Assembly: GCA_038209745.1 (NCBI GenBank)
Contig: JBBQXJ010000004.1
Location: 37,882-101,881, forward strand
DNA length: 64,000 bases
Source of the DNA: Verrucomicrobiota bacterium
GTDB taxonomy: Bacteria > Verrucomicrobiota > Verrucomicrobiia > Limisphaerales > CANJSG01
Reading direction: 5' to 3'
Numbering within the stretch: position 1 is the stretch's first letter; each line of letters opens with the position of its first letter. The notes below the pieces were generated by a model. The model had not been told where the DNA came from. It saw nothing but the letters and a program-made list of their open reading frames with translations, and ran no database searches. The position numbers were made by a program, and so were the translations under genes. This document shows, piece by piece, positions 40,995 to 56,363 of the stretch.

Positions 40995-41069
40995 TGGTGC
41001 GCGATGCAGGGTTCGAACCTGCGACCCCTACCGTGTCAAGGTAATGCTCTACCACTGAGCTAACCGCGC
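40995..41069 (-). tRNA. tRNA-Val(GAC)
   Basis: GCGCGGTTAGCTCAGTGGTAGAGCATTACCTTGACACGGTAGGGGTCGCAGGTTCGAACCCTGCATCGCGCACCA; full cloverleaf with encoded CCA. Confidence 0.97.
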
Positions 41070-41224
41070 AACCGGGCGGGGGCAGATAAGGCCACAGCAA
41101 AAGGGTCTTTGGCAAGTGGCTATTTTCATCGGAAACCCGGCCTGTCTCTTCGGACTTCGCCCATCGGCCGCGTCCCACCATTTCCCATTTGCCAACCCCG
41201 GGTCCGACACTCCACTTTCCGCTC

Positions 41225-41315
41225 GTCAGGGGCCATGGGGCGCGGACTTACGAATCCCGCCAGGGCCGGAAGGCAGCAACGGTAGTTTGCTCTGCGCAGT
41301 CGTGGTTTCCCTGAC
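41225..41315 (+). ncRNA. ffs: Signal recognition particle RNA (small 4.5S type)
   Basis: CCAGGGCCGGAAGGCAGCAACGG domain-IV motif with GGAA tetraloop in a long hairpin closed by gtcagggg...tccctgac; TTGCCA -35-like box at 41189. Confidence 0.9.
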
Positions 41316-41318
41316 ACT

Positions 41319-44300
41319 TCAATTCTTCTCCCGCGGCCGGCGCTGACCGATGGCGAGACCGGTCCCGAACAGCACGACCAACCCCGCCACCAATCCGGTC
41401 TTCATCCAGCCCGACGCGGCCCGCACCGCCTCCGCCTCCAGCCCGATGTTCAGGTCCGCCCAAGTATCGACCATCACCGCCCGCTTGAAGGTCAACAACC
41501 GGCCCTGCTCCGGCACGTTCGCCCGGATCACCGCCGGATTCGCCACGGCTGCGTCCTGCTGTTGTACGATGCGCTCCGCCAATCGCATGAGCGCCGCGTT
41601 GTCGTCCGCCCCGCTCCGGTCCATCAACCGTTTCGCGTCCTCCTGCGTGTAGTTGATGCGTCCCTGCACGGCCACGCCTCCCACGGCGGCTTCCTGCAGA
41701 TTGTTGAGCCCCATCCAGGCCTGCTGTTTCTTCAGGTTGTTCAACTGCACCCGCGCGTCCTCGTTGAACGCGTCGTCGTGCTGCGAAAGTCCGTAGGCGT
41801 TCTGGAAGGCCCTCCGCGCCTGTTGCGGGTCGCCCTGCGCCAGCGCCCGGTTGCCCAGCACCAGCATCTGTTCGGCCTCCCTGGTCTTCTCCTGCCGCTG
41901 GCTCGCCTCCTGTTGCAGATAGCTTCCCAGCTCCGCCGACGCCGGCAGGGACACGACTTCCTCGCGCTCCATCTGCAACGCGCCCGTCCAACGGGTCACG
42001 TTCCACTTGTCGCCGAGAAACACGCGCCAACGGATGTCCTCCAAGGGCAGGTCGAACTTCGGCGCCAGCAGTTCCAGATCGAGCGAGCTCCCACCCGCCA
42101 CGCCGACCCGGCTGGTGAAGAAGATCTCGACCGTCACCGGCTTTCCGCCCGCCGCCTGTTGTTCCAGGGGAATGAGGATCTGGTCCTTCTCCGTCCACGG
42201 CCACACGCCGTTTTGATTCACGAAGGCAAACCAGAAGGTCGCGTCTTTCGGCAGCGAAAGGTGCAGCAAACGCTTGTCGCCCGGCAGCAGCTCCAACCGG
42301 GCCTGCGTCAACATCGCGCCGGTGTCCGAGACGACCGAGGTGAAGGTCACATGGGTCACCCGCGCCGGCAGCAGCTTCGCCGCCTCGTGCCGTTCCAACG
42401 TCAATGGCAACAGAAAGCCGGGTTCCACCAGACGAAAGGCGAAGCTCGCCGCCGCATCCGGGAGGTCTTTCAGGAGATTGCGCGGAATGCCCTGCCACTC
42501 CGTCGGCTGGAGCTGTTGGGGCGCCGCCGCCCGCACCTGCAAACGCCCGCCCGCCTGCACGGTCACATAGCCTCTCTGCAGATTCACGCCCGCGACCTCC
42601 ACTCCTCGCAAAGTCGTCCCGGTCGCCTGGGCCGTGACGGGAATCTGATACGTCGCCTGGAGCAGATACGCTCCGATCACGCGCCGCTGCAGCTTCACTT
42701 CCCACGTCCGCAATCCATTCGTGCCCGCCTCTTCGACCGGCAGGAAATCCGCCACGTGTTCGCCCTGGAAGCGCACGTTCTCCGCGTTGGTGGCCAGCAT
42801 CACGCGGAACGCCTTCAGTCCGGTGTTCTCGATCTGGAACTGCAGGTTCGCCGTCACCTTCATCTGCGCCTCGCCCACCGTCGCATGTTGGAGACCGGTC
42901 ACCTGGATCCAGGGATCCACCTGCTCGATCTCCAGCGCGACGGTCCATGCCGCCTGCAAAACGCGGAACGCCAGCACGCCCTTCTGGCGAATGCCGGACT
43001 TCTGCGGATCGAGCTGCGTCACGCCCTCGCGCGTCCCCACCTGCAACCGCATCCCCTGCTCCGGCACCAGCACCAGCGTCCCCCGTTGCTTGCTGGCTTC
43101 GCGGAGCGACAGCCTCGGCACCGTCCAGGCGTTCGTCGCCCCGACGCCGCCACCGACCAGATTGATCTGGAACCGTTGCGGCCCTTCGGTGCGGCCTTTG
43201 AGGTTCAGGGTCACGACGCGGTTCGTCTCCGTTTTCAATTCGGTCCAATGGCTCAACGCCTCGCCGCTGATCGTCTCCACGTCCATGCCCTCGGGCAGCA
43301 CGAAGCTCAGACGGAAGATCCCCGCCCGCGTGATGGCCACGTCCAGGGTCGAGGCCAACACCGTCCGGTCCTCGCTCAAGGATACCGTGTCCTGCGCCTC
43401 CACCCGGATGTCCGGCTCCATCGCGGAAGCCTTGATCAACGCCGTCGCCTTCAGATCAGGACAACGGAACGCGCGCCGCACGGTCAGTCCCGGAACCTGC
43501 CCCGCCATCAGCGCCGTCATCGCCGCCGGATAATCCTCCAGATTGATCGGAGAAAGCCCCTCGGCTTCGACCGAATCCAGCTGCACTTCATTGCCCGTGG
43601 CCACTCCCAGCATCCCGACCTGCGCGGCCGCGCCCTCCACCACGACCAGTCCGACAGTCTCCGCCACCGGCAGCGTGCTCGTAGCCCGTTGAGAGCGGAT
43701 GACCAAGGCGAACGGCTTGGACTGCGCCGTCGACAGACGCACCAACAACCGGTGCCGATCCGGGTCGAAGCGCCACTGCGCCACCAATCGGTCGGCCCCC
43801 TGCACATCCGTCACCGTCACGCCCGTCGGCACGGTGAACGCCAGCTCCGCCAGTTCGCCCTGGGCCGGTCGGATCGATACCTGGTGCGCCCCTTCGATGA
43901 CCCCGGCCGACGGCACATAGAGATGGGTCAGCTCCGCGTAGAAGACCGGCTTCTCGCGCCGCACGTCGCGGCTGAGGGGCTTCCAGACGATCCACGTCCC
44001 GACGGTCGGCCGCAGAACCAGATTCGCCACCGTGTTGCTGCCCACGACCTCGCGCTGGATCGACGCCGCACCCGTGGAAACCACGTCCACGTCTTGGTTG
44101 AGCACCGTCAGCTTGAGCCGGTTGACCAGACCGAACTGCGTCGGCAATTCGATCCCGGTTCCGCCCATGCCAGACGGTTCAACATCCCTGAATTGGACAC
44201 CCACCTCATACTCCACCACCACGTCGAACCGCCCGGTCTCCAGCGCGACCAACTGCTGGACCCGCCTTCCCTGAATGGCCGCGGAGACAAGTTTCAAGGC

Positions 44301-47300
44301 GTTCGTCGGATACTGGACCCGCGTCAGCACCGCCGGCTCGAACAGCAACGGCAACACCTGTCCCTTTTCCGCCGTCCAGCGGATCGTCGCCACCGCCGTG
44401 GCGGAGTTTTCATCCACCCGGATCTCCTGCACCACCGACTCCGGCAAACGGGCTTCACGCGGCAATGCGCCCGGCGCCGTCGCGGCCGCCGCGCCACCGG
44501 CTGATCCAATCCACAGTAAGCCCGCCAATACCGCCGCCGTGGCGGCTCCGGAAACGCCCCCGGCGGGAGGCAGGGTCGACGACGCGTCCGGCCGCTTCGG
44601 CACCGCGAACAGCCGCCGCAGTTCCGGGATCACGATGTGCCAGCCCACGAACACCGCCAGAACTCCCAGCAACCCGCCGCCGCCGTTCGTCGCCACCAAG
44701 GCCGCCAGCGCCAGCAGCGTCCATCCCACCACCGACGTTGCGGGACGTCGCATCCCTCCGGCCGCCGCACCATAGCCCCACGCCACAGCCGCGAGCACCA
44801 CGAGAACCCAGCTCGCCAGACTGCTATCTCCCGCCTCTTCCGCGATGTTCCCCACCTCCACCTGCAAAGCACTGTTCGCCTGCTGCACCGGCGCCACCAA
44901 AGTCACCTCGTGCGCCGGCCACTGACGCTGCTGCGCGACCACCCCGGCCAGCTCGACCCACGCCACCGTCGCCATCGCCATCGCCGCGAGTCCGACGACC
45001 AGTCCAACAAGGTGCCGGGCGCTGAATCGATGGACTCCCTCCCGCACCGTCAGGCGCCAGACTCCCACCGCGATGATTACGAGGACCAAAGCGGCGCCGC
45101 CGATGAAGACCGCTTGAAAGGCCCGACCGCTCGAAAGCACCCGCCCCCATTGCGCAAAGCCCGTCCTATCAGGAATTCCGCCGACCGGCTGGAGCGACCC
45201 TTTGCGGTAGACCAGTCGCCGCCCCGTATCGGGCTCCAGCTTCCATTCGGCCAACATCACCGGGGCCGCCACCACCGGAGCGGCCAACGAGATGCGCGCC
45301 GGATTCTTCGACCGCGAAGCCAGCTTCAGATCGACCACCAACACGGCGTCCGGCGCCGCGTTCTGGGGCAGTGGAATCAGGTTCGCCTTCTTGTCGATCA
45401 CCGGCACCACCGGCTTGCCGTCCACCGTCGCCGACCAAAGCTGCGTGTCCTGCGGCAGCGTCACCCGCAGATGTGTGTTCCCCCGGTTCTTCACGTAGTA
45501 GCGCACGTCCGTCAGCACCTGCCCTTCCTGTGAGATGCGGGACACGAGCGACGCGCGGTCCACCACTTGACTGAGAGAATCCCCCTGGGTCAGCGGACTG
45601 AGAGCCAGCCGCAGGTTGAACGGCCGCGCGGTGTAGCGATAGGCCGCGAGGATCGGCGCGTCGAAAAACAGGCGGTATTCCGCCGGCACTTCACCCGGCT
45701 CCAGCACCAGCAGGCCGGGCGACACTTCCGCCGGTTGCACCCGGAACTGGTACGCGCTCGTCACCAGGGTGTAGCCCTGCTCGGTCTGGGCGTCGAGCGG
45801 CCTCGCACCGGAGAAGGTCAGTGTCTCGCCCTGGCCCTTGAACGGCCGCTCATACGTCGCCAAAAGCGTGTAGCTCCCGGCGACCGGCGTCTGGAGCTGG
45901 ACCGCATAGCCGTTCGTCGTCTTCTGCCAGTTGCGGATGTCCTTCCCGGCGAACTCGACGTTGAAATATTCGTCCGACAGCTCGATCTGGAAGGCCGATA
46001 CCGGCGCGCCGGACACGACGTAGTTCAGCACGCTGCTGCCATACGCCACACCCTCGCCGATGGAGAAGAGGTGCAACGCCTCGGCCTGGACGGTCTGGGG
46101 TAAACGCTCCACCCGGATCGCCGCCGCCCAAACCCCGTCGGCCAGCCGGAACGCCGTCTGCAAGCCGGTGGTTTTTCTTGGAAAGAACGCCGTTGCGATC
46201 TCGTTCAACGACTCCGTCCGCTCCGGCGTGAGCCGAAAGCCCGCGTCCGCCGAAAGTCCCACGAATCCGCGCACCGACTTTGCGCCGACCACTGCGATCC
46301 GGGGCAACGCCCAGTTCGTTTCGCTCCCGCTCTTGTTCCGCTCGAGCCGCAGCTGGATCACCTGCCGTCCCAGCACTGGCTGGCCGTAGACGAGCCTAAG
46401 TTCGGCCTGCGCCGCATCGGCCGGGTCACGGAGGAAATAGTCGCTCATGCCCGCCGCGTTCAGCCGCACCACGGAGTAGCCTCTGGGCACCGAGAGCATT
46501 AGCTCGCGCAACGGCGCCTCGCGCACATCGAGTTCGAGCTCCGCTTCGATGGCCCGCTCGTTTTCGCCATGGTGGTAGGTCAGCACCTCGGACACCGCGA
46601 CCTCCGGCTGGATCGAATCCGCCTGGATCCGCAGCGCGAGATCACCCCCGGAAAATCGATAGGCGAAACGCTGGTTGCCCGACGATCCGAAGGCCGCCTT
46701 CGTCGCGTCCGTCTCCGGAAACTGCTCCGGCGAAATCTGCGAGAGCCCGGTCGCCTGCACCACTTCGAGCCGCACCGCGCCGTCGTTGACGATGCGATAG
46801 TGGCCCGAGAACCGAGTCGCCCCTTCCGGCCGCAGCAGCATCGGCTCCACCGCCAAGGGAAACGCTGTCAGAGGGGTCTGCATCTGCACCTGGAGCGTGA
46901 ACCCTTCCTTTTGCGGCTGGTTGAACTGCACGACCAATCGCCGGTCGGACGAGCCGTCGATCGGTTCCAGATTCCACGCCAACACCGCGTCGCCCAGCAC
47001 CCGCGTCACCTCGCCCTCTCCGTGCAGACGCAGCGTCAAACGGCCGAGCTCGCCCTGCATCACCTTCCCGTCCAGCAGCGCCACCTGCCGCATCAATCCC
47101 GGCGCGAGGCTCACTTCCGCGAGCATTTCCGCCGCGTAGAAGAGCCGCCCCTCCGCCTCCGGCCTCGCCGTTTTCCACGCGAGGCGGACCGCGCCGTCCG
47201 GAGGAAGATGGCTGACGAACGTCGCACCCACCCGCTCCGGTTTGGCCGCGCCGTCGAACTTGAACTCCGTCGCCTCCGGCAATCCCTCCAGCACCACCGG

Positions 47301-48557
47301 CAACAACGTGCTGGCACCCACCGAAAAATCGACGGCGTCCCAGCCCTCCTTGCGCTGGACCGCCGCATTGAAGCGCAGCGTCACGGGAAAGTCTCCCGCG
47401 TGATCGAACACCAGCCAGAAACGATCCCCCGAGAAGACCACGCGCCCTCCGGATAGAGGATCGATCTCCGTCAGCGCCACTCCGTTCCCGGCCAGCACCA
47501 CCGCCGAACCCCCTTCGGGCCGATCCACCCGGGCCGTCGCCGTCACCGTGAAGCTCGCCGCGTCGTCCCCCAGACGCCCGACCATTTTGAAGTCGCGCAA
47601 CACCACGCGTCTCGCCTCCGGATCCGCCACCGTGACGGACAGCGGCAACGAATAGCCCGCCCCTAGGATCTGGAACGCCAGAGGCTCCGCCTCGTCGCCT
47701 TTGCCCAACCAGCGAAGTGCCGTCGGCAAATACTTCGCCTCGACCGGGAGCAAGCCTTCGGGATGGACGACCTGTACCAACAGCCCAGGACCCACGTCGA
47801 TCCGCACCGAACCGCTGAGCAAGGATTGGGGCGACGAAAGCGTGAAGCCCGGCAGGGGATCCGGGTAGGCCTTCAACTCCCGCACCGCCACGAGGTCCAC
47901 GACCAGTCGTGTCGCGGGTTTGTCGCCGCGCTTCGGCCGGAGCACCAGGCTCCGCGCACCGTCGGCCCCGCGTCGCAGGCTCCAGTCCTGCAAGTCCGGC
48001 CCGGTCACCGACAGGATCTCGCCCTCCCCGGACACGCCGAGCACCAGCTCCTTGGGATCGCCCTGGAGAATGTCGAGATTCGCCGAGATGCGGTTCGTCA
48101 CTCCGAGCCGGCCCACCTCCACCCGATGCTGGAGCGTCGTGGAGAAGATCACCTTGTCGCGATCCGCGCCGGACCCGTTCAACAACGCCTCGATCACCAA
48201 CCGCGCCTTGCCATCTTCGATCCCGCCAGTCACCGACACCGACTTCGCCTCGGCCGCGCGGCCCGCCATGGACGCGCCGATCAAAAGCCCCAGCACCACA
48301 AGCCCCCAACAGCCCCGAAGAATCCGTGACGGTAGGGCGAAAGCTCCCGCCGAGCCGCCGCGCGATCCCCTCGAAAGCAGAGCGCCACACTGGCGACTCC
48401 AGAACGCCCGACGGACGCCAGAACCGCTCTCTTGGAGGAGGCCCGCCCCAAGGCGGCTCGGGAGGAGCCTTCGTCCTACCGTCGACCGGGAGTCGCGTTG
48501 TTCCGGTCCGGACCGCTGCCCAGCCGCGCCGAGTCGTTCGTTGGATTCAGGTTTCAT
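41319..48557 (-). CDS. Giant (2412 aa) hypothetical membrane protein with repeated beta-rich modules
   Basis: Uninterrupted 7.2-kb ORF; signal-like segment ending about residue 100, about 9 related modules, central hydrophobic block, TPR-like helix and C-terminal TM plus basic tail; start uncertain. Confidence 0.85.
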   Translation of the reverse strand: MKPESNERLGAAGQRSGPEQRDSRSTVGRRLLPSRLGAGLLQESGSGVRRAFWSRQCGALLSRGSRGGSAGAFALPSRILRGCWGLVVLGLLIGASMAGRAAEAKSVSVTGGIEDGKARLVIEALLNGSGADRDKVIFSTTLQHRVEVGRLGVTNRISANLDILQGDPKELVLGVSGEGEILSVTGPDLQDWSLRRGADGARSLVLRPKRGDKPATRLVVDLVAVRELKAYPDPLPGFTLSSPQSLLSGSVRIDVGPGLLVQVVHPEGLLPVEAKYLPTALRWLGKGDEAEPLAFQILGAGYSLPLSVTVADPEARRVVLRDFKMVGRLGDDAASFTVTATARVDRPEGGSAVVLAGNGVALTEIDPLSGGRVVFSGDRFWLVFDHAGDFPVTLRFNAAVQRKEGWDAVDFSVGASTLLPVVLEGLPEATEFKFDGAAKPERVGATFVSHLPPDGAVRLAWKTARPEAEGRLFYAAEMLAEVSLAPGLMRQVALLDGKVMQGELGRLTLRLHGEGEVTRVLGDAVLAWNLEPIDGSSDRRLVVQFNQPQKEGFTLQVQMQTPLTAFPLAVEPMLLRPEGATRFSGHYRIVNDGAVRLEVVQATGLSQISPEQFPETDATKAAFGSSGNQRFAYRFSGGDLALRIQADSIQPEVAVSEVLTYHHGENERAIEAELELDVREAPLRELMLSVPRGYSVVRLNAAGMSDYFLRDPADAAQAELRLVYGQPVLGRQVIQLRLERNKSGSETNWALPRIAVVGAKSVRGFVGLSADAGFRLTPERTESLNEIATAFFPRKTTGLQTAFRLADGVWAAAIRVERLPQTVQAEALHLFSIGEGVAYGSSVLNYVVSGAPVSAFQIELSDEYFNVEFAGKDIRNWQKTTNGYAVQLQTPVAGSYTLLATYERPFKGQGETLTFSGARPLDAQTEQGYTLVTSAYQFRVQPAEVSPGLLVLEPGEVPAEYRLFFDAPILAAYRYTARPFNLRLALSPLTQGDSLSQVVDRASLVSRISQEGQVLTDVRYYVKNRGNTHLRVTLPQDTQLWSATVDGKPVVPVIDKKANLIPLPQNAAPDAVLVVDLKLASRSKNPARISLAAPVVAAPVMLAEWKLEPDTGRRLVYRKGSLQPVGGIPDRTGFAQWGRVLSSGRAFQAVFIGGAALVLVIIAVGVWRLTVREGVHRFSARHLVGLVVGLAAMAMATVAWVELAGVVAQQRQWPAHEVTLVAPVQQANSALQVEVGNIAEEAGDSSLASWVLVVLAAVAWGYGAAAGGMRRPATSVVGWTLLALAALVATNGGGGLLGVLAVFVGWHIVIPELRRLFAVPKRPDASSTLPPAGGVSGAATAAVLAGLLWIGSAGGAAAATAPGALPREARLPESVVQEIRVDENSATAVATIRWTAEKGQVLPLLFEPAVLTRVQYPTNALKLVSAAIQGRRVQQLVALETGRFDVVVEYEVGVQFRDVEPSGMGGTGIELPTQFGLVNRLKLTVLNQDVDVVSTGAASIQREVVGSNTVANLVLRPTVGTWIVWKPLSRDVRREKPVFYAELTHLYVPSAGVIEGAHQVSIRPAQGELAELAFTVPTGVTVTDVQGADRLVAQWRFDPDRHRLLVRLSTAQSKPFALVIRSQRATSTLPVAETVGLVVVEGAAAQVGMLGVATGNEVQLDSVEAEGLSPINLEDYPAAMTALMAGQVPGLTVRRAFRCPDLKATALIKASAMEPDIRVEAQDTVSLSEDRTVLASTLDVAITRAGIFRLSFVLPEGMDVETISGEALSHWTELKTETNRVVTLNLKGRTEGPQRFQINLVGGGVGATNAWTVPRLSLREASKQRGTLVLVPEQGMRLQVGTREGVTQLDPQKSGIRQKGVLAFRVLQAAWTVALEIEQVDPWIQVTGLQHATVGEAQMKVTANLQFQIENTGLKAFRVMLATNAENVRFQGEHVADFLPVEEAGTNGLRTWEVKLQRRVIGAYLLQATYQIPVTAQATGTTLRGVEVAGVNLQRGYVTVQAGGRLQVRAAAPQQLQPTEWQGIPRNLLKDLPDAAASFAFRLVEPGFLLPLTLERHEAAKLLPARVTHVTFTSVVSDTGAMLTQARLELLPGDKRLLHLSLPKDATFWFAFVNQNGVWPWTEKDQILIPLEQQAAGGKPVTVEIFFTSRVGVAGGSSLDLELLAPKFDLPLEDIRWRVFLGDKWNVTRWTGALQMEREEVVSLPASAELGSYLQQEASQRQEKTREAEQMLVLGNRALAQGDPQQARRAFQNAYGLSQHDDAFNEDARVQLNNLKKQQAWMGLNNLQEAAVGGVAVQGRINYTQEDAKRLMDRSGADDNAALMRLAERIVQQQDAAVANPAVIRANVPEQGRLLTFKRAVMVDTWADLNIGLEAEAVRAASGWMKTGLVAGLVVLFGTGLAIGQRRPREKN
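48328..48483. repeat. GTAG-type REPIN-like element within the 5' end of the giant ORF
   Basis: gacggtagggcgaaagctcccgccgagccg versus reverse complement of cggctcgggaggagccttcgtcctaccgtc; 156 bp. Confidence 0.8.
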
Positions 48558-48645
48558 GGTTGCTCAAAAAATCTTGGTTGCTTGCCGCCGACTGCCTGCC
48601 TGTTCCGTGTAGATTCTTCGACGGCGTTTCCGCCGTCGTCTTCCT

Positions 48646-48781
48646 AGTGGCACAGGTGCCCTCGCCTGTTCCCAGTCCCGCAGGCGCCTCCGCCTGCGGA
48701 TTCTCTTTTTGTTCGTCCGTCCGAAACACCACCGGGCGGGGCGCCCGATGGACGGATACTGGCGGGGGCGCCTGTGCCACT
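48646..48781. repeat. GTGG-type REPIN-like element between vWA gene and giant ORF
   Basis: agtggcacaggtgccctcgcctgt versus reverse complement of actggcgggggcgcctgtgccact; internal hairpin ccgcaggcg-cctc-cgcctgcgg. Confidence 0.8.
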
Positions 48782-51700
48782 TACTTCCCACCCAACCGCG
48801 TCGCCGTCGCGATGGCCTCTTCGAGCGCCTTGGCGCGGCTGTTCGCTCCATAGAACTCCGGCACGCCGACGAGGATCTTCCGCAGCGCATCCGGCGACAC
48901 CTCGCCGGCGAACGCGCTGTCCGAAAGCCACTCCGCGAACTCCGCAGCCGTCGCCGCCAGCCGCATCGCGGGCGCCGCCTGTTCCAGCGCCGGAGCTGCG
49001 CCGTTGAACGGCACTTCCCAGGCGTGTTCGCGATAGTCCTGAGTGCCCGGCACCCGGTAGCGCACCCGCACCGTCGCCAGCGGCCCTTCGCCCTGCGGAT
49101 TCACCTCCATCGTGTAGAGCGCGTTTCCCGCCTCGGCCGCGCCGATCTCGGCCGCATCGACCGAGTTGTCGCGGAACTGTTCCTTGGTCAGCTGATGTTT
49201 CGCGTAGCCGATCTGGCGATAGGCCGTGACCCGCTTGGGATTGAACTCCACCTGCACCTTCACGTCCGACGCCGCCACTCGGAGCGCTCCGGCCAGCTGC
49301 TGCGCGAAGCCGGAAGCCGCTTCCTCCGGCGAATTCAGGAAGCCATAGCGCCCGTCGCCATTGCGTGAAAGCGTCTCCAGCAGGTCGTCGTTCAAGCCCT
49401 CCCAGCCCACGCCGAAGCAGTCCAGCGCCACGCCCTGGCGCCGGTTCGACTCCACCGTTTTCTTCAACGATTCCGGATCCACGTTGCCGAGGTTCGCCGC
49501 GCCGTCCGTCAGCATGACCACGCGGTTCACGCCGTTGGCCAACAGGTGCCGGAGCGCCGTCTGATAGGCCAGGCCCATCGCCTCTTCAAGGTTTGTTCCG
49601 CCTTCGGGCGTGACCCCGTCGAGCAGGTCGAAGACCGCCAAAGCCTGGTCGCCGGACACCCCGTCCGCCCGCAGATGCGCCGTCCGCGCAAAGGTCACCA
49701 CGCTGAGCCGGTCCTGCGGCCGCAGCTGCGTGGCCAAAACGCGCAACGCTTCCCGCCGGATCCGCACCCGATCGGCGCGTTCCATCGAACCGGAGTTGTC
49801 GAGCAACACCACCAGGTTCAGCGGCTGTCCCGCCGACCGACCCGCCGCCGCCGTCTCGACGGAAAGGCGCAGCAGATCGCGGTTGTGCTCGAAGGGGGAC
49901 CGCGCCCGGTCCCACGCAAAGGCCAACGGCGCGCCCGCCGCCGGTGCCGGATCACGATAGTCGAAGGCGTTGATGAACTCCTCGCTCCGGATCGACGCCG
50001 GTTCCGGCATCTTCCCCTGCTCCAAGCTCGCCGTCGCCAGCTTGAACGACACGTCGCTGACATTGAGCGAGAAGGTCGAGAACGCATTGTCGGCCGCCAG
50101 CACTTCAGGCTGCGGAATGGGCGCGGCCGCTTTGGGTTTGGTCGCCGCCACATCGTCCGGAGCCTTCTGCTGGAGCGCCGGCAGCTCCACCAACGCCTCC
50201 GCGAGCTGCGCCAGCTTCACCTCCCGCTCGGCCAACTGTTTCTCAAGGACCTCGACGTCCTTGACCTTGATGTCTCCCTTCGACTGCAACCGGCCATCCC
50301 GGTAAACCTCCGCCGCCTTGTTCGTGATCTTGGCCGCTTCGTCCTTGTTCACGCTCAGGGTGGCGACCGCGTCTTTCTGGCCACTGAGAGCTTCCCCGAC
50401 CTTGGCGAAGAATCCCTTTTTCTCGGCCGAATCGGGTGAAGCAAGATCGTCGATCGTTACCGGGCCGGCCGGAGGAAGCGTCGGCTCATTCTTCTCCTGT
50501 TCGACCGGCCGCTTGAACTCGGAGACGATGCGCCTGGTCTGATCCAGCTGTTCCGATGCCTGCCTCTGCGGACTCGACTTCTTGGCGCCCTCGGCCACCT
50601 CCCCAAACTTGGCTTCCTGCAACGGCTTTTCACCCAGGAGCCGCCGGGATTCGTCGCTGAACCCCGCAGCTGCCGCATCCTTCGTCCGGGACACCTCCTG
50701 ACTGGGCAACCGTCCACCGGTCTGCGCCGGACTTTCGCTCTCGCCGCGGGCCAGCTCCTCGTTCCGGACCCCGTTGCTGATCTTTCCAGAGCCGAACCCG
50801 TAGGACAGGTTCTGGCGGTGACCCGGTTGCTGGGACGGGATCAGCGCGGCCGCCGATTCCGCGTTTCCGGCGAGTTCGGAAAGATCGGGACGCACCCCGG
50901 CATCTAGGCGGGTCTTCAGTTCAACCTGGATCTGGTCCTGCACCCCTTTTCTCCGGCCCGCGACTCTCACGTCCGCCGCCACGCCGGGCAACGGCCTGGG
51001 AGAGGCGGCGCCACCACGACCGCCAAAGCCTGCACTCCCAGCCGACAGAGACGCTTCGGAAGTGGCGAGCGGGGTAAACGCCGGCTCAAGACCGAAACGA
51101 TTCACCGCCACTTCGGACCTGGGCCACCCGCTTGCGACCGGCGGTGGATTTCCAGCGGTTTCAGCGGACAGCTCGGCCTTGAAGAGCCGGCCCAGCACCG
51201 GGAGATCCCCGACCACGGGTGTGGCGGAGTCGGACTCGGCTGGCAGGTTCGCGGAGGGCTCCGCCTTCTCCAACAGGCCGAGGTTTTGCGGATCCTGGAT
51301 GTCTGAAAAATTCCCTCGCACGGACCCCAAGACCGTCTGCGGAACGCCGGCCGGCGGAATCACCGGTTGGAGCGAATCGAGCAGCTGGTTTTTCGCGTAA
51401 AAGTCAAATGCCCCCGATTCCACGGCTCCATTGGCCGTCGCCGATCCGTGGATCGTCGTATTTTTATCCACGGAATCCCGGGACCGCTCCGATCCTGCAG
51501 CTCGGCCACTTGCCGCTTGTCCGCCAAAGGCCCAGTTGTTTCCGATCTCGTTTGCGAGTCGCGATCCGGCTTCTCCCACTCTTCCACTTTTCGATTCGTC
51601 GACCGTTGCCGCGGTAGAAAGCGCATCTCCAAAACTTTCCCCGGCCGTCGCGGTGCGGCCGAATTCCGCCAACTTTTGAGCCGCCTCCGATGCGCTCGCC

Positions 51701-52404
51701 TCTTCCCGATCCGCCAGCCCCAGTTGGATCGAGAGCGACGTCGGCATTCGGGTCGACGTCGGTGGCGAAGCCGGAAGTGAAGGCGTGGGAGCGCCCAACC
51801 CGGAACGGCGCGCGTCGGCGGCGAAGTCATCCGCAACCGGACCGGCAGGCCGAACGGCGCTCAACCGCGCGGAGTTGGTCACGATCAAATAGCCAAGCCC
51901 TTCAATCGCCGAAGCGGCCCTTCCGTTCCGGGAATAATGTTTGGCTTCCGCAGATTGCAGACCCGGATCCGAAGTTCCTCGGAGCTGGAAGGCGAATTCT
52001 TCGCCGCCGGCCGCTCCCATCCTCCCGAACCGGAACACGGCCACGCTGATCAATCCAACCAGCGCCGCCGCCAGGCCCAAAGGCGCGTATCGCTTCCATT
52101 CGGACCCACGAGCGGATCCACCCATGGGCACCGTTTTGAACCGCTCCAGCAGGCGCGTCCGCCGGTCGTCGGAAAGCTTCAGCGGGTCGGCTTGGGAAGC
52201 GCTTCCCTCCAGCGGTTGGGTCGCGGCTTCCCGAACGAGTCCGAGCGTGGCGGCCAGTCGGTCTCGCATCGCCTTCAGTTCGGCGTCCGCGTCGATCCGG
52301 GCCTGGAGTTCGGCTGCGTCGGTTTCGGACAGCTCTCCCAGCAGGAGCGCGAGGATCCGCACCTCCAGGTCGTCTTCGGGAAGGATGGATTCGGGCGGCT
52401 TCAT
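48781..52404 (-). CDS. Anti-sigma-like membrane protein with C-terminal YfbK-type vWA module (vWF_A + VWA + DUF3520-like), 1207 aa
   Basis: LALLLGELSETDAAELQARI anti-sigma-like N-terminus, one TM, long low-complexity linker, FSTFSLNVSDVSF/IRSEEFINAFDY, MIDAS LDNSGSM, GGTN, LTDG, YRQIGYAKHQL. Confidence 0.85.
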   Translation of the reverse strand: MKPPESILPEDDLEVRILALLLGELSETDAAELQARIDADAELKAMRDRLAATLGLVREAATQPLEGSASQADPLKLSDDRRTRLLERFKTVPMGGSARGSEWKRYAPLGLAAALVGLISVAVFRFGRMGAAGGEEFAFQLRGTSDPGLQSAEAKHYSRNGRAASAIEGLGYLIVTNSARLSAVRPAGPVADDFAADARRSGLGAPTPSLPASPPTSTRMPTSLSIQLGLADREEASASEAAQKLAEFGRTATAGESFGDALSTAATVDESKSGRVGEAGSRLANEIGNNWAFGGQAASGRAAGSERSRDSVDKNTTIHGSATANGAVESGAFDFYAKNQLLDSLQPVIPPAGVPQTVLGSVRGNFSDIQDPQNLGLLEKAEPSANLPAESDSATPVVGDLPVLGRLFKAELSAETAGNPPPVASGWPRSEVAVNRFGLEPAFTPLATSEASLSAGSAGFGGRGGAASPRPLPGVAADVRVAGRRKGVQDQIQVELKTRLDAGVRPDLSELAGNAESAAALIPSQQPGHRQNLSYGFGSGKISNGVRNEELARGESESPAQTGGRLPSQEVSRTKDAAAAGFSDESRRLLGEKPLQEAKFGEVAEGAKKSSPQRQASEQLDQTRRIVSEFKRPVEQEKNEPTLPPAGPVTIDDLASPDSAEKKGFFAKVGEALSGQKDAVATLSVNKDEAAKITNKAAEVYRDGRLQSKGDIKVKDVEVLEKQLAEREVKLAQLAEALVELPALQQKAPDDVAATKPKAAAPIPQPEVLAADNAFSTFSLNVSDVSFKLATASLEQGKMPEPASIRSEEFINAFDYRDPAPAAGAPLAFAWDRARSPFEHNRDLLRLSVETAAAGRSAGQPLNLVVLLDNSGSMERADRVRIRREALRVLATQLRPQDRLSVVTFARTAHLRADGVSGDQALAVFDLLDGVTPEGGTNLEEAMGLAYQTALRHLLANGVNRVVMLTDGAANLGNVDPESLKKTVESNRRQGVALDCFGVGWEGLNDDLLETLSRNGDGRYGFLNSPEEAASGFAQQLAGALRVAASDVKVQVEFNPKRVTAYRQIGYAKHQLTKEQFRDNSVDAAEIGAAEAGNALYTMEVNPQGEGPLATVRVRYRVPGTQDYREHAWEVPFNGAAPALEQAAPAMRLAATAAEFAEWLSDSAFAGEVSPDALRKILVGVPEFYGANSRAKALEEAIATATRLGGK

Positions 52405-52688
52405 GGCCGGGCCTCCTGTCCGTGTTCCATAGCCACCGAAAACAGATTCCCTATCCGGGCGAAAACATGAACCACAGATCGACACAGAAGAGCACATATG
52501 GAACGAACCCCTTCGAGCGAGCCCGCCCCCGATCCGGCCGCTGGATTCTCCGTGCCATTTCCAGCCTGGCTCCGACGTTCCATGAATCTATGTCCATCTG
52601 GGTCCATCTGTGGTTTCTCCCGGTTTCCGCGACAGGAGGCCCGGACCCTGGCTTCGGCTTTTGGCGTTCCGGCTTCGTGCTTGTTCAT
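52401..52688 (-). CDS. Putative 95-aa bridging ORF largely derived from a palindromic element
   Basis: ATGA overlap with sigma stop (52685-52688) and ATGA overlap with anti-sigma start (52401-52404); no recognisable domain. Confidence 0.3.
   Translation of the reverse strand: MNKHEAGTPKAEARVRASCRGNREKPQMDPDGHRFMERRSQAGNGTENPAAGSGAGSLEGVRSICALLCRSVVHVFARIGNLFSVAMEHGQEARP
52470..52615. repeat. ACCACAGAT-type decamer palindromic element
   Basis: aaccacagatcgacacagaagagcacatatggaacg ... cgttccatgaatctatgtccatctgggtccatctgtggtt. Confidence 0.75.
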
Positions 52689-53308
52689 GGCTTCACCCCT
52701 GTCTTGGCGAGTTCTTCGCCGACCGTCTTGAGCGCGTGATGGAGGAGATAGCCGACATGGCCCGGGGTCAGGCCGGTGCGTTCGGCGATCTCCTTGTAGG
52801 AAAGATTCTCGGTGAACTTCAGCCGGATCAGTTCGCGGCTCCGTTCGTCCAGCGTCTCCAGCGTGAGACGCACGAGCCCGATGCCTTCCCAGCGGGCGAC
52901 CTGTTCATCGGGCAAGGGCTGGGTGTCCGCCGTGTCGTGCTCCCGATCCTCACCGGATCCGTCGTCGACCACGGGGTGGAGGGAGACGACTTTGTCCGCC
53001 TGGCGGCGGTGGTTGAGAGCCTGGTTATGGACCGTGCGATAGAGCCACAGGCGGGGCTCGCGGACGGTTTGGAACTGGGCGTGGAGTTTCATGAACGCTT
53101 CCTGCACGAGGTCTTCCGCCGCGTTCCGATCGCCCACCAAGCGCAGCGCATAGGCGAGGAGCGGCGATTCCAGCGCCTCGAAAAGCGCCTCGATCGTCCG
53201 GTCGCCGGCCGACTCCGCCCTGGCTTCGTCTGGTCGCGTCATGGTGCTGCCGGGTGGCATGGCCTGTGGGATTTCAGTCCGCCGTTCCGGTGATGGGATC
53301 GCAGTCAA
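52685..53308 (-). CDS. ECF-family RNA polymerase sigma factor
   Basis: Region 2 AEDLVQEAFMKL, WLYRTVHNQALN; region 4 LSYKEIAERTGLTPGHVGYLLH; start TTG 53308 or ATG 53260/53242. Confidence 0.92.
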   Translation of the reverse strand: MTAIPSPERRTEIPQAMPPGSTMTRPDEARAESAGDRTIEALFEALESPLLAYALRLVGDRNAAEDLVQEAFMKLHAQFQTVREPRLWLYRTVHNQALNHRRQADKVVSLHPVVDDGSGEDREHDTADTQPLPDEQVARWEGIGLVRLTLETLDERSRELIRLKFTENLSYKEIAERTGLTPGHVGYLLHHALKTVGEELAKTGVKP

Positions 53309-53319
53309 ACATCGTGCTT

Positions 53320-53362
53320 CACCCGTTACGACACCGGAGCGGACGGTTTCTTAGACGAATTC
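53320..53362 (-). promoter_or_regulatory. 43-bp direct repeat copy 1; candidate ECF promoter upstream of sigma gene
   Basis: Minus strand gaattcgtctaaGAAAC-N15-CGTAAcgggtg; 42/43 identical to 54054-54096. Confidence 0.7.
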
Positions 53363-53432
53363 ATCAAATGACCGCCACGACTTCCGGGCAGGGCCGGGTT
53401 CAACGGATTGCCCACTGACGACGTGTTCTTCA

Positions 53433-53975
53433 TCAGTCCCTTTTTACTTCGATGTTCTTCGGCACATCGACCTGATCCAAGGCGATGCGTCCTCCAGTCC
53501 AGAAATGGACTTCCACCACATACCCGGGCTCTTTGGCGGCCTTCTGAAGCGCTTCAACCGAATTCGTTCCTTGCCGTGATAGAGTCGCCAAGTTGCGCCA
53601 GCCCTTGGGGCAAGCGGTTAGCTTCCAATCGCAAGGCCGTCCTTCCTTGGCCCACGGCGACTTCGCCTCGCCGGCGCCGTCGTGGAGCAACAGGCGCGTC
53701 TCCACCACGCCCTCCAGCTTGGCGAATTCGCCTAGAAACTTCGTCAACTGGGCTGCACTGCCGGAATAGAAGAACACGTCCTCCTGGTTCACAAAAAACC
53801 CATGGATCCGGTTGGTGGCGTTCACCATTTGCTCCAGTCCCTTGGGCCAAGTCGCCAAGCCGACGACCGGCTGGTCGTTGGGATGGTCGGCCCCGAGGGA
53901 AAAGGCGTCGCGGGCCGAGGCGAGCAGCACCCAGGCGAGGAGTATCTGAAAAATGCGGAGTGGCTTCGTCTTCAT
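53433..53975 (-). CDS. Hypothetical secreted protein (180 aa)
   Basis: Sec signal MKTKPLRIFQILLAWVLLASARDAFS; globular composition; bracketed by the 43-bp repeats. Confidence 0.75.
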   Translation of the reverse strand: MKTKPLRIFQILLAWVLLASARDAFSLGADHPNDQPVVGLATWPKGLEQMVNATNRIHGFFVNQEDVFFYSGSAAQLTKFLGEFAKLEGVVETRLLLHDGAGEAKSPWAKEGRPCDWKLTACPKGWRNLATLSRQGTNSVEALQKAAKEPGYVVEVHFWTGGRIALDQVDVPKNIEVKRD

Positions 53976-54053
53976 AATGTCTAAGGGCACACTTGTTGTT
54001 TGTTGACCGGTCAGGCTCCTGAGCCGGCCTCTTGACCGACGTGGCCAGCAAAC

Positions 54054-54096
54054 CACCCGTTACGACACCGGAGCGGACGGTTTCTTGGACGAATTC
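54054..54096 (-). promoter_or_regulatory. 43-bp direct repeat copy 2; candidate ECF promoter upstream of secreted protein gene
   Basis: Minus strand gaattcgtccaaGAAAC-N15-CGTAAcgggtg. Confidence 0.7.
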
Positions 54097-54173
54097 TGCG
54101 AACGATTGCTCCCGCCAGAAACAATCCCCGCGCTTGGCTTCCATCCGGGCCATTCGTTAGCGTCCGCCAGCCG

Positions 54174-56357
54174 ATGAAATCCCTGAGCCTTCTTGTTCCC
54201 CTGGTCGTGGCCGGCGCCTCCTGGTGCGTCCGCGCCGGAGAACCGTTTCCTTTGCTGCCCGGAATGACCGTGAAGAGCCTGAACGCGACTGGCCGGGCCG
54301 AGTTCAGCCTCGACGGCAAGGGCGGCACCATGACCGGCCCGCTTGAGCTGACCTACAGCAACGTCGTCCTCCGTGCGGACAGCATCACTTCCCCGAATTT
54401 CCAAGAATACCACGCCAACGGCCACGTCTCGATCCTCCAGAACGGCGCCGCCTGGTATGGCGACCACATTGTCTGGAATCCGACGACCAAGGAGATCTCG
54501 GCCGACTCGTTCAAGGCCGGCTACGACCCGCTCTACGTCTACGGCGAAGGCCTGCACTTCGACACCGCCACCCAGACCTATCAGGCCACCAACGCGGTCC
54601 TCACCACCGACAACGTCGCGGACCCGGCCCACGAGCTCCACGCCAAGACGATCCGCATCGTCCCGGGCGAATACATCGAGGTGGACGGGGCCAAGATGGT
54701 TCTCGGCACGGTGCCGGTCTTCTACTGGCCCTACTACCACCGGTCTCTCGGACGGCATCCGATGAACTTCTCCTTCGTGCCGGGCTACCGCTCGCGCTAC
54801 GGGGCCTTCCTCGAGTCGAAGTTCAATTTCCAGCTCAACGACACCGTCGACGGCGCGCTCCGGTTCGACATGCGGAGCAAGCGCGGATTCGCCGGCGGAC
54901 CGGACGTCTTCTTCCACCTGGACCGCTGGGGCGAAGTGGGTCTGCGCTACTATTACCTGACGGACGATGCGCCGGGAGTGGACCCGCTCCTCCAGCCGAT
55001 CCACGACAAGCGCGACCGGCTGAAGTTCACCTACGACGCGACGTTCATGACCAACCTCACGGTCAAGAGCCAGATCCGCTACCAGCGGGACGGGTACATC
55101 GTCCGCGATTTCTTCGAGAGCGAATACCGGGAGAACGTCCAACCCAACAGCTTCGTCGAGGTCAACCAGCAATGGAGCAACTGGGCCCTGGACGCCTACG
55201 CCCAGCCCCGGGTGAACCACTACTTCGAGACGGTCGAACGCCTCCCGGACCTCCGTCTCACCGGCCTGCGCCAGCAGCTCGGCGACACCCCGCTCTACTA
55301 CGACAGCGAATCGTCCTTCGCCTATCTCCAGCGCTCGTTCGCCAACGTCTCGACCAACGACTTCTCCGCCTCCCGCGCCGATACGTTCCACCAGGTCACC
55401 CTCCCGTGGAACTTCTTCGGCTGGCTGAACGTCACCCCCCGAACCGGGGCCCGCTACACCTACTACACCGCTGCGGACGGTCCTGGTGCCGCGACATCGT
55501 CCCAAAGCCGCTGGGTCTACCACACCGGGGCCGAGATCAGTCTGAAAGCCTCGCGGGTCTGGGAAAACGCCGCGAATCAGCTGCTCGATGTCCAAGGCCT
55601 CCGGCACATCATCGAACCGTCGCTGAACTACGTCTACGTCCCGAGCCCGAGCCGCCCGCCGAGCCAATTGCCGCAGTTCGACTACGAAATCCCCAGCTTG
55701 CGCCTCCTGCCGATCGAGTATCCGGACTACAACGCCATCGACTCGATCGATTCCCAGAACGTTCTCCGCCTCGGCCTGCGAAACCGCCTCCAGACCAAGC
55801 GCGAAAACAAAGTGGAGGACCTCGTCGCGTGGAGCCTCCTTGTCGACTGGCGCCTTGATCGGCGACCCGGCCAGGCCACCATTTCCGATGCCTTCTCGGA
55901 TCTGGATTTCAAGCCCCGCTCCTGGATCACCCTGAACTCGGCCCTGCGCTACAGCGTGGAGGACGGCACTTTCCGCGAGAGCTACCATCGGATCTTCCTC
56001 CAGCCGTCCGACCGATGGAGCATCGCCCTCGGCCAGCGCTATTTCAGCGATCCCGCCACCTACGGGCCCGACTCCGGACACAACACCCTTTTCAGCAGTT
56101 TCTTCTTCAAGCTGAACGAGGAATGGGCCTTCCGGACCTCGCACTTTTTCGAGGCCCGCGACGGCGTCATGGAAGAGCAGTTCTACACGCTGTATCGGGA
56201 CTTCCGCAGCTGGACCTCCGCCCTGACCTTCCGCGTCCGGGACAACCGCACCAGCGCCGACGACTACACTCTGGCGGTCACCTTTTCCCTCAAGGCCTTC
56301 CCCCGCTACGGCCTGGGGGAAGACCGGGACAATCCCGAACGCCTGCTGAGCCACTGA
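54174..56357 (+). CDS. lptD: LPS-assembly protein LptD
   Basis: Signal peptide, jellyroll-like N-domain, VPVFYWPY, PGYRSRYG, ERLPDLR, HIIEP, aromatic-rich beta-barrel. Confidence 0.8.
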   Translation: MKSLSLLVPLVVAGASWCVRAGEPFPLLPGMTVKSLNATGRAEFSLDGKGGTMTGPLELTYSNVVLRADSITSPNFQEYHANGHVSILQNGAAWYGDHIVWNPTTKEISADSFKAGYDPLYVYGEGLHFDTATQTYQATNAVLTTDNVADPAHELHAKTIRIVPGEYIEVDGAKMVLGTVPVFYWPYYHRSLGRHPMNFSFVPGYRSRYGAFLESKFNFQLNDTVDGALRFDMRSKRGFAGGPDVFFHLDRWGEVGLRYYYLTDDAPGVDPLLQPIHDKRDRLKFTYDATFMTNLTVKSQIRYQRDGYIVRDFFESEYRENVQPNSFVEVNQQWSNWALDAYAQPRVNHYFETVERLPDLRLTGLRQQLGDTPLYYDSESSFAYLQRSFANVSTNDFSASRADTFHQVTLPWNFFGWLNVTPRTGARYTYYTAADGPGAATSSQSRWVYHTGAEISLKASRVWENAANQLLDVQGLRHIIEPSLNYVYVPSPSRPPSQLPQFDYEIPSLRLLPIEYPDYNAIDSIDSQNVLRLGLRNRLQTKRENKVEDLVAWSLLVDWRLDRRPGQATISDAFSDLDFKPRSWITLNSALRYSVEDGTFRESYHRIFLQPSDRWSIALGQRYFSDPATYGPDSGHNTLFSSFFFKLNEEWAFRTSHFFEARDGVMEEQFYTLYRDFRSWTSALTFRVRDNRTSADDYTLAVTFSLKAFPRYGLGEDRDNPERLLSH

Positions 56358-56363
56358 GCCGCA

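Follow-up and report, generated by a model that had tools for sequence, protein, structure and literature searches.

A conserved locus of an ECF sigma factor, an anti-sigma/vWA protein and a giant inner-membrane protein in Verrucomicrobiota

Locus layout and conservation of the three-gene unit

We analysed positions 41319-54096 of a 64,000-nucleotide stretch of DNA (the window) from a Verrucomicrobiota bacterium (assembly GCA_038209745.1, contig JBBQXJ010000004.1), with a G+C content of 60-67% across the window. A preliminary description made from the sequence had pointed out four co-oriented genes at this locus, and all four open reading frames (ORFs) are present there on the minus strand. 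They encode a secreted protein of 180 amino acids (aa), an extracytoplasmic function (ECF) sigma factor, an anti-sigma factor that ends in a von Willebrand factor type A (vWA) module, and a giant membrane protein. The sigma, anti-sigma/vWA and giant genes are a conserved, linked three-gene unit (the triad) that is widespread in Verrucomicrobiota. The gene-level features are:

53433-53975, minus strand: gene for the 180-aa secreted protein (sec180), from ORF and signal peptide
52685-53242, minus strand: ECF sigma gene, 185 aa from the conserved start; the ORF extends to 53308
52405-52684, minus strand: sigma/anti-sigma spacer of 280 nt, containing a short dispersed repeat
48781-52404, minus strand: anti-sigma gene, 1207 aa within a 1238-aa ORF
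41319-48557, minus strand: giant ORF, 2412 aa, or 2326 aa if started at GTG 48299

Related loci were collected by a pattern scan of one genome per species, which yielded 263 confirmed relatives of the giant protein, and 80 loci were kept. A vWA head together with the anti-sigma N-terminus is encoded on the same strand and in the same order in all 45 loci that offer at least 6.5 kb of sequence upstream of the giant gene, and the sigma factor is present in 43 of these, both misses being caused by a contig end; the vWA gene is also found in 8 of 8 loci with 1.5-6.5 kb upstream. Clustering of the flanking ORFs revealed no other conserved flanking gene, the largest cluster covering 12 of 73 loci. 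The linkage extends to distant loci, in which the giant is only 22-37% identical: 14 of 20 keep the sigma factor, the vWA protein and the giant, and the remainder consist of one locus cut by a contig end, the locus of genome G197 (see below), and four without the regulator pair. The synteny check could have separated the three genes, and the linkage claimed for them came through it intact.

At the level of the phylum, the C-terminal half of the giant is matched in 71 of 401 sampled genomes (52 of 185 genera), and in this sample the protein is almost always encoded in one open frame of 2000-2400 aa that contains both halves. Subtraction of the source genome (G000) and of three weak matches leaves 67 robust giant-bearing genomes, 50 of which carry the vWA gene just upstream on the same contig and ten on another contig of a fragmented assembly; in one more, G197, it lies 11.7 kb upstream with unrelated genes between. 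The best 50 vWA matches (at least 232 bits) all fall in giant-bearing genomes, and weaker matches, which occur in giant-free genomes, span only the first ~350 residues of the head. A high-scoring sensor is never found without a giant and a giant is sometimes found without a sensor, as one would expect if the regulator were dedicated to the giant as its cargo.

Gene starts were refined by comparison with relatives. The sigma gene probably begins at 53242, giving 185 aa, as judged from alignment with orthologues that share the same start. For the anti-sigma gene the previously proposed start at 52404 (1207 aa) is right, the 31 upstream codons of the 1238-aa ORF not being coding-like. The length of 2412 aa given for the giant is real for the ORF, but the first ~86 codons stem from the insertion of a dispersed repeat and the conserved protein comprises only ~2326 aa: these codons lack the coding signature at third codon positions (G+C by codon position 0.71/0.65/0.69 vs ~0.70/0.45/0.85 further in), and a database protein that is 99% identical to the giant begins at GTG 48299, which gives 2326 aa. 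ATG 48557 and the ~60 nt before it (ATGAAAC block) are kept in the nearest relative, L003, and this leaves the start of the giant between GTG 48299 and ATG 48557.

Three short dispersed, mostly palindromic repeats, resembling repetitive extragenic palindromic (REP) elements or miniature inverted-repeat transposable elements (MITEs), are located at two gene junctions and at the 5' end of the giant ORF. One occupies the sigma/anti-sigma spacer listed above; the other two are:

48645-48781, minus strand: palindromic dispersed-repeat hairpin directly after the anti-sigma stop codon; minimum free energy -90.7 kcal/mol, z = -6.6
48326-48486, minus strand: second palindromic dispersed repeat, ~160 nt, inside the 5' extension of the giant ORF

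The arms of the hairpin at 48645-48781 match at least 8 other places in the genome in both orientations, the repeat at 48326-48486 matches more than 30 contigs of the genome, again in both orientations, and a ~35-nt core of the spacer repeat matches at least 20 other genomic places. The sigma and anti-sigma genes abut in many orthologous loci, compared with the 280 nt that separate them here. The earlier statement that no T-tailed terminator is evident between the genes holds for the strong junction hairpin, which is without a T tail, but a weak terminator-like site is present at 48395-48383; such sites occur in the region at chance level (13 found vs 10.6 expected). A scan of 40500-55000 for sigma-70-type promoters returned 0 sites.

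Other reading frames in the vicinity do not belong to the unit. An ORF of 199 aa (53554-54153) and one of 916 aa (54060-56810, minus strand) were rejected as genes and regarded as antisense or composition artefacts, their Arg/Gly-rich translations belonging to no family. A 727-aa ORF on the plus strand (54174-56357), overlapped by the 916-aa minus-strand ORF, diverges from the module and gives a sub-threshold match to LptD_2 (19.6 bits, cut-off 22.5). Downstream of the giant, at 36875-40860, lie a DUF1501 gene (39436-40860) and a PSCyt1/PSCyt2/PSD1 (DUF1553) gene (36875-39868), the usual pair of Planctomycetes and Verrucomicrobia; both were rejected as members of the module, being near the giant in few of the 80 loci.

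The regulator pair, its promoter and its predicted regulon

The features assigned to the promoters and to the anti-sigma protein are:

54054-54096, minus strand: upstream ECF-type promoter copy before the 180-aa gene, TCCAAGAAAC ... GTGTCGTAA, 42.3 bits
53320-53362, minus strand: sigma promoter, -35 TCTAAGAAAC (53355-53346), -10 GTGTCGTAA (53334-53326), 49.1 bits
52093-52404, minus strand: predicted cytoplasmic anti-sigma domain, residues 32-135 of the 1238-aa ORF, conserved motif ELExRLTALLLGELSxEEAA
52033-52089, minus strand: predicted single transmembrane helix of the anti-sigma protein, residues 137-155, hydropathy scan
50158-52032, minus strand: hypervariable, low-complexity tether of ~620 aa, predicted to be periplasmic, alignment of orthologues
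51175-51216, minus strand: secretin-like short motif VVGDLPVLGRLFK in the tether, anti-sigma residues 428-441
48784-50157, minus strand: predicted periplasmic head, vWF_A, VWA and YfbK_C, all three above the Pfam cut-offs
49786-49800, minus strand: metal-ion-dependent adhesion site (MIDAS) motif DNSGS, residues 900-904 in the 1238-aa numbering

In Pfam the sigma factor matches Sigma70_r2 and Sigma70_r4_2 only, and the general ECF model TIGR02937 is matched with 90.8 bits against a cut-off of 42.9; with its sigma-2 and sigma-4 regions and this match, the protein falls among the ECF (group IV) sigma-70 factors. The narrower models all score below their cut-offs (e.g., TIGR02989, 62.9 vs 124.55). 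The product of the next gene begins with ~105 conserved residues that contain the usual LTALLLGELSxEEAA helix, and no Pfam anti-sigma family is matched in this N-terminus at E up to 0.01. Modelling of the sigma factor with residues 32-135 nevertheless gave a complex score of 0.66, compared with 0.02 for the best control; of 157 solved complexes 116 attain this mark, and of 215 mismatched pairs 2 do. Since sigma/anti-sigma complexes have already been solved, a passing score indicates resemblance to those and does not prove binding. Agreement among the three runs is at least 78% of contacts, the partner has a predicted local distance difference test (pLDDT) score of at least 73, and the predicted contacts involve sigma residues 16-55 and 117-178, i.e., both the sigma-2 and the sigma-4 region. 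By prediction, the helical N-terminal domain thus contacts its partner as a class I anti-sigma factor does. The 1207-aa protein had been called anti-sigma-like, with structure prediction of the pair proposed as a check, and the outcome is a predicted clamp in which its N-terminus would hold the sigma factor in the manner of an anti-sigma domain.

At the other end of the protein, the presence of a vWA module with an intact DxSGS MIDAS, as noted previously, is borne out by the DNSGS motif and by three Pfam domains, PF12450 (E = 2e-14), PF00092 (E = 2.7e-12) and PF12034 (YfbK_C, formerly DUF3520; E = 5.1e-31), which together with the complete MIDAS make this a YfbK-type vWA protein; the downstream motifs GGTNL and LTDG can also be read in the translation of the head. 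The head comprises ~450 residues with 60-92% identity among orthologues, and the nearest solved sequences are the inter-alpha-trypsin inhibitor heavy chains (ITIH) H4 and H1. Compared with the head, the tether is poorly conserved, with a column identity of 7-20% and a total length of the orthologues that varies from 923 to 1639 aa. It contains a short motif, G-D-[VIL]-P-x-x-G-x-LF, in 20 of 46 orthologues (0.1 expected from shuffled sequences), with the longer consensus (V/L)LGD(V/I/L)PxxGxLF(K/R)S, and the stretch that carries the motif is also a weak match to the Amuc_1098 secretin family.

The duplicated ECF-like promoters reported for the locus are a 43-nt direct repeat with one mismatch, at 54096-54054 and 53362-53320. 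When the window is scored with a promoter matrix derived from 34 orthologous loci, every other position stays below 12 bits. Counting gapped words in the 350 nt that precede the sigma genes returned one dominant motif, TTTCGTCTAAGAAAC, 12-13 nt, GTGTC(A/G)TA, of which loci of the Chthoniobacter type have the variant TTCTAACAAAC ... TCGTCTCA. The motif stands upstream of the sigma gene at the same distance throughout, with a spacing of 17 in 43 of 46 loci and of 18 in the other three, and it precedes the sigma gene in 9 of the 14 distant triads. Its constant position argues for autoregulation, and it is very probable that the sigma factor drives its own expression from a promoter kept throughout the phylum. 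A further conserved block, GA(A/G)CACGATG(TC), is found at 53300-53320 and in orthologous loci, ~10-15 nt after the -10 element and out of frame with the sigma gene; it could represent the transcription start region or a tiny leader ORF.

The motif also marks genes outside the triad. Beyond the window, the only other good match in the source genome is at G000:C13:45530, where the motif (24.8 bits) precedes two ORFs, one for a secreted product of ~140 aa and, after it, one for a paralogue of the 180-aa protein (second locus, G000:C13:45530-46568; paralogue, 46023-46568, 62% identical). A match at G000:C12:21014 (18.9 bits) was rejected, as it is without the CTAA core. The 180-aa protein itself begins with MKTKPL, has the signal peptide MKTKPLRIFQILLAWVLLASA and belongs to no Pfam or NCBIfam family; ESM Atlas leads for it are weak (0.80-0.86), several of them to small VWA proteins, and were not relied on. 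Its assignment to the system did not stand, as the gene was found in none of the 80 related loci and in 2 of the 401 phylum genomes, namely the source genome, with two copies, and G062. The G062 copy is without a recognisable upstream motif, and the promoter of the sigma gene of G062 differs as well. The restriction of the gene to these two genomes and the position of both G000 copies behind the motif point to a local addition to the regulon, and the 180-aa gene is therefore predicted to be a lineage-specific regulon member under a copied promoter, outside the conserved module.

An exact-pattern scan of ten other triad-bearing genomes recovered the sigma promoter of each genome and a few further targets. 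In G348 the motif, which shares 26 of 30 bases with the sigma promoter of that genome, precedes the gene for a bacterial alpha-2-macroglobulin of 2016 aa; this arrangement was found in one genome only. In the same region (L110, G348:C1:2514300-2522300), an M28 peptidase gene follows the alpha-2-macroglobulin gene behind the near-copy of the ECF promoter. G309 and G138, which belong to different genera, have the motif before orthologous genes for a 483-aa secreted DUF4140/DUF4139 protein, and G141 and G138 before orthologous genes for a secreted protein of ~175 aa. Several other matches were discarded: that at G309:65805 is a terminator hairpin, those at G309:2095489, G378:3634085 and in G370 have no plausible gene behind them, and those at G138:C7, G141:C20 and G249:C66 remain at the level of a reversed-pattern control. 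All motif targets that were counted encode exported proteins, and the motif predicts a small exported regulon.

The giant inner-membrane protein

The giant can be divided into the following parts, with arms and membrane segments as predicted:

41319-48299, minus strand: giant protein from GTG, 2326 aa
45123-48272, minus strand: N-terminal periplasmic arm, ORF residues 96-1145, paralogous to the C-terminal arm
44502-45122, minus strand: membrane core with five-helix bundle, periplasmic beta hairpin (APVQQ...VEV.N), basic cytoplasmic loop and internal signal-like helix, AlphaFold2 and hydropathy
41406-44477, minus strand: C-terminal periplasmic arm, ~8 beta-sandwich domains, AlphaFold2
41349-41405, minus strand: C-terminal transmembrane anchor, hydropathy scan; helix 1023-1044 of the model

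The protein represents a large family, with more than 954 near-full-length homologues of ~2350 aa; clustering at 50% identity leaves 2421 representative clusters. Neither Pfam nor NCBIfam has a family that covers it, and Pfam at E up to 10 gives only a sub-threshold match to a tetratricopeptide repeat (TPR). An ESM Atlas search with the C-terminal arm returned unnamed Verrucomicrobiota clusters only, and our literature searches found no published function for the family. The internal repetition noted in the preliminary description is confirmed in every locus, where the N-terminal half matches the C-terminal half with ~24% identity; some relatives are without the first ~220 residues of the N-terminal arm. 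Some clusters consist of single units of ~1100 aa with their own signal peptide and C-terminal anchor, and the giant is for this reason best seen as a fusion of two paralogous genes.

The AlphaFold2 model of the C-terminal arm (pLDDT 83.8, predicted TM-score (pTM) 0.41) shows ~8 beta-sandwich domains, the last of which carries a helical, TPR-like insertion followed by two closing strands, and ends in the membrane helix; the low pTM is expected, because the domains are arranged as beads on a string. The TPR assignment comes from a profile match in this arm, and a profile search of solved structures gave only designed TPR proteins, which match one helical motif. Foldseek comparison of the arm returned immunoglobulin (Ig)-like arrays only, i.e., ribophorin I, PrgB, integrin alpha legs and alpha-2-macroglobulin, at TM-scores up to 0.33 and E down to 3e-11. 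For the last domain (model residues 703-1016), VIA-align matched N-domains of M1 aminopeptidases with Z 12-14 and a root-mean-square deviation of 3.0-3.8 over 142-165 residues, and ribophorin I with Z 15; a likeness to ITIH1 (Z 8.9) is in the range of common arrangements and was kept as a lead only.

The membrane core was modelled with a pLDDT of 83.0 and a pTM of 0.69, and a structure search with it returned generic helical bundles only (Z up to 11.4). By the positive-inside rule, both arms are assigned to the periplasm, and the signal is followed by seven membrane helices. The predicted architecture is thus a five-helix membrane bundle flanked by two paralogous beta-sandwich arms in the periplasm.

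The likeness of the arms to ribophorin I, integrin alpha legs, PrgB, the macroglobulin domains of alpha-2-macroglobulin and the M1 N-domain is one of fold, with no sequence similarity; the giant has no catalytic domain, and the shared fold shows no function. Membership in the alpha-2-macroglobulin family, suggested by the UniRef name of the homologue CfE428DRAFT_2824 of the cultured Chthoniobacter flavus Ellin428 ('alpha-2-macroglobulin domain protein'), was rejected, as there is no Pfam support, the giant ORF contains no C.EQ thioester motif and only 3 cysteines, and the likeness is restricted to the fold (6tav_C, probability 0.57). Kinship of the arms with DUF4139/DUF4140 (MuiA-like) proteins was likewise rejected (hhalign of the C-terminal arm against the G309 DUF4139 protein, probability 0.13).

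Working model, alternatives and relation to known systems

The locus as a whole is best explained, in our moderately confident judgement, as a dedicated, autoregulated envelope module of Verrucomicrobiota, with the giant as its cargo and perhaps its ligand. The ECF sigma factor would be made from its own promoter (TCTAAGAAAC, 12-13 nt, GTGTC(A/G)TA). The product of the next gene would retain it at the inner membrane through an N-terminal anti-sigma domain, cross the membrane once, continue as a disordered periplasmic tether of ~620 residues and end in a YfbK/ITIH-type vWA head with a complete MIDAS. The third gene would provide the cargo, an inner-membrane giant composed of a cleaved or anchoring signal, periplasmic arm 1, a five-helix bundle, a cytoplasmic loop, an internal signal helix, periplasmic arm 2 and a C-terminal anchor. 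The vWA head may report the state of the giant, or of the envelope layer that the giant occupies, and loss or gain of this putative ligand would inactivate the anti-sigma factor, most likely by regulated proteolysis, as in other single-pass anti-sigma factors. Freed sigma factor would then raise expression of its own operon, with read-through, or in some lineages a second copy of the promoter, extending this to the giant gene, and would also switch on a small, lineage-specific exported set, here the 180-aa protein and the second locus with its paralogue.

The region between the vWA gene and the giant gene offers some support for such coupling. A second strong ECF motif is present there in 3 of 54 loci (39.6, 37.1 and 26.6 bits, compared with a background maximum of 0.1), and one further locus has a match of 10.7 bits. 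In several loci with a clear start of the giant, the extrapolated distance from the end of the vWA gene to giant residue 96 is only 79-182 nt, as would suit an operon. Elsewhere the gap amounts to 300-700 nt, or other genes have been inserted.

A number of observations weigh against the proposed module. No ECF motif precedes the giant in 51 of the 54 loci, though the motif is easily found before other targets, and the best score before the giant in the window is -13.4 bits; the anti-sigma stop and the likely start of the giant are here separated by ~480 nt and by the hairpin of -90.7 kcal/mol. In 9 of 9 loci of a clade with a short N-terminal arm (L011, L014, L024, L029, L033, L038, L043, L044 and L048, whose giants are without the first ~220 residues), a different conserved element is located ~60 nt before the ATG of the giant. 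It reads CTGACAA ... TTTTTACAAACCTTTGACC ... CTGACAAC (also given as CTGACAA...TTTACAAAC...TTGACC) with two direct CTGACAA repeats, the three ECF motif copies lie upstream of it, and it probably serves the giant gene as promoter or operator. Together with the block just before ATG 48557 that is conserved in L003, this element suggests that the giant has expression signals of its own. Furthermore, 6 of the 67 giant-bearing genomes are without the sensor (five of one genus with genomes of ~2 Mb, and G296), and in a second set of five genomes the motif matches outside the operon were no more numerous than those of a reversed-pattern control, for which reason only matches that recur in two genomes or share spacer sequence were counted. 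The most economical reading would be a dual control, in which the giant gene has basal signals of its own and in addition receives read-through or direct drive from the sigma promoter.

Much of this would also be expected if the giant were transcribed and worked independently, and the three genes were neighbours by descent in an old, slowly decaying linkage with no regulatory or physical tie. The rarity of the ECF motif before the giant, the conserved elements that precede it, the strong hairpin, the giants without a sensor, and the inserted genes with gaps of 1.2-5.6 kb (L040, L041, L073, L074 and L061) and 11.7 kb (G197) all agree with such an explanation. Order and strand are, however, kept down to a giant identity of 22-37% while all other neighbours turn over, the vWA gene ends, by extrapolation, within 182 nt of giant residue 96 in several loci, the promoter motif of the sigma gene stands directly before the giant in three, and in the sample of 401 genomes every high-scoring sensor is accompanied by a giant, and we therefore regard independence of the genes as improbable. 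A stronger competitor accepts that the sigma pair controls the giant and the exported targets, and differs in what is sensed: the vWA head could respond to something else, such as an outer-membrane or cell-wall component, an external ligand or protease damage to the tether, and the giant could be a protective or structural effector instead of a ligand. We consider this proposal less likely than the working model. The additional predicted targets are exported, one of them a periplasmic protease trap (the G348 alpha-2-macroglobulin), the length, disorder and hypervariability of the tether are what one would expect of a bait or of a spacer that reaches across the periplasm, and the secretin-like motif, shared by 20 of 46 orthologues, is a hint that the partner is not the giant. 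In addition, anti-sigma factors with vWA and DUF3520 domains (ECF226 and ECF289) occur in phyla for which the group descriptions available record no conserved partner gene (PMC7826278). On the other hand, the alpha-2-macroglobulin target comes from a single genome, and the confinement of the best 50 vWA matches to giant-bearing genomes is a tighter tie than a general envelope sensor needs.

A more specific version of the envelope module, which we consider rather unlikely, would make it a self-monitoring checkpoint. The tethered vWA head would dock via its MIDAS metal on an acidic residue of a giant arm, an arrangement drawn, with the same reserve, from the way in which integrin or ITIH-type vWA domains bind their partners, and the sigma factor would thereby report whether the scaffold is present, assembled and intact; upon loss of contact the anti-sigma factor would be degraded and more scaffold and protectants would be made. 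If this were true, contact would be lost through absence or displacement of the scaffold or its cleavage by foreign proteases, the lineage-specific periplasmic protectants would be proteins such as alpha-2-macroglobulin, and the module would amount to outside-in signalling in bacteria by means of a vWA domain and Ig-like 'legs', in a family that no database describes.

A parallel is offered by FecI/FecR/FecA cell-surface signalling, where an ECF sigma factor is controlled by a single-pass anti-sigma factor that spans the periplasm, and the product of a linked gene is both the target and the sensed partner. In the module proposed here the product of the linked gene would similarly be a target of the sigma factor as well as the partner sensed by the anti-sigma factor. 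Here, however, both a TonB-dependent transducer and a FecR domain are missing, sensing would fall to a head of the vWA/MIDAS type, and the candidate partner resides in the inner membrane.

A different role for proteins of related layout has been put forward in a 2025 paper (PMC12204202), in which proteins of Planctomycetes and Verrucomicrobia (PVC bacteria) with a transmembrane helix, a linker and a vWA domain are proposed to be TolA/TonB-like force transducers beside TolQR-like motors. Applied to our locus, the protein would mechanically couple the inner membrane to an outer structure, with sigma binding as a secondary read-out. What speaks for this view is the common layout, in which a proline-rich, disordered linker joins a membrane helix to a YfbK-like vWA head (PMC12204202). 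In contrast to the proposed transducers, the membrane helix of the anti-sigma protein, YAPLGLAAALVGLISVAVF, is without the SHLS/His motif and without Asp, no tolQ/tolR/exbBD-like gene is found among the conserved neighbours, including those directly adjacent, and the N-terminus is a cytoplasmic anti-sigma domain predicted to bind sigma, a feature that the available text of that paper does not describe. The protein was accordingly not assigned to this class, and a role in force transduction is very improbable. The Bat (BatA-E) aerotolerance operon was also rejected as a relative, with 41.8 bits for the BatA model against a cut-off of 380 and no Bat-like neighbours.

The regulator pair itself has counterparts in the ECF classification. 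According to the group descriptions of Casas-Pastor et al. 2021 (PMC7826278), ECF226 sigma factors are followed at position +1 by an anti-sigma factor with one membrane helix, which in subgroups s1 and s3 carries DUF3520 and a von Willebrand domain. The group is distributed over Acidobacteria (56%), Planctomycetes (33%) and Verrucomicrobia (11%), is described as uncharacterised at the bench, and has neither a conserved genetic context beyond the anti-sigma gene nor conserved promoter motifs, whereas a third gene and a promoter are strongly conserved here. ECF289, in the same source, is confined to Proteobacteria (100%) and likewise not bench-tested; its anti-sigma factor has one helix and a C-terminal vWA and DUF3520, a gene for a trimethylamine methyltransferase or an aldehyde dehydrogenase is conserved beside the pair, and its predicted promoter has the -35 CCCAAGGA and the -10 CGTCTxA. 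In the loci studied here the conserved neighbour is instead a giant membrane protein and the host belongs to Verrucomicrobiota. The -10 CGTCTCA of the Chthoniobacter-type loci is compatible with CGTCTxA and the -35 elements TCTAAGGA/TCTAAGAA resemble CCCAAGGA, the promoter as a whole being similar, but not identical, to that of ECF289.

With its anti-sigma gene at +1, one helix and a C-terminal vWA plus DUF3520, the pair shares the layout given in these two descriptions, and it is by this anti-sigma layout that it is likened to them (PMC7826278). Our literature searches returned no further paper that mentions ECF226 or ECF289, and no functional study of DUF3520/YfbK. The claim that no characterised system has this composition was therefore overstated for two of the three parts, since sigma/anti-sigma pairs of the vWA/DUF3520 type are catalogued (PMC7826278). 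The observations of the preliminary description are confirmed and its interpretation is partly supported, in that the linkage of the three genes and a probable autoregulation of the sigma factor are borne out; sensing of the giant, or of a structure built by it, by the vWA module, and a coupling of its assembly to transcription, are putative.

The regulator pair is of a catalogued, bench-untested kind, to which the conserved third gene, the promoter and the regulon are additions. The triad would give the vWA/DUF3520 class of anti-sigma factors its first functional context, and for a giant family that is large yet represented by no Pfam or NCBIfam model, the adjacent, dedicated and autoregulated sigma pair would offer a practical handle on an otherwise opaque protein.

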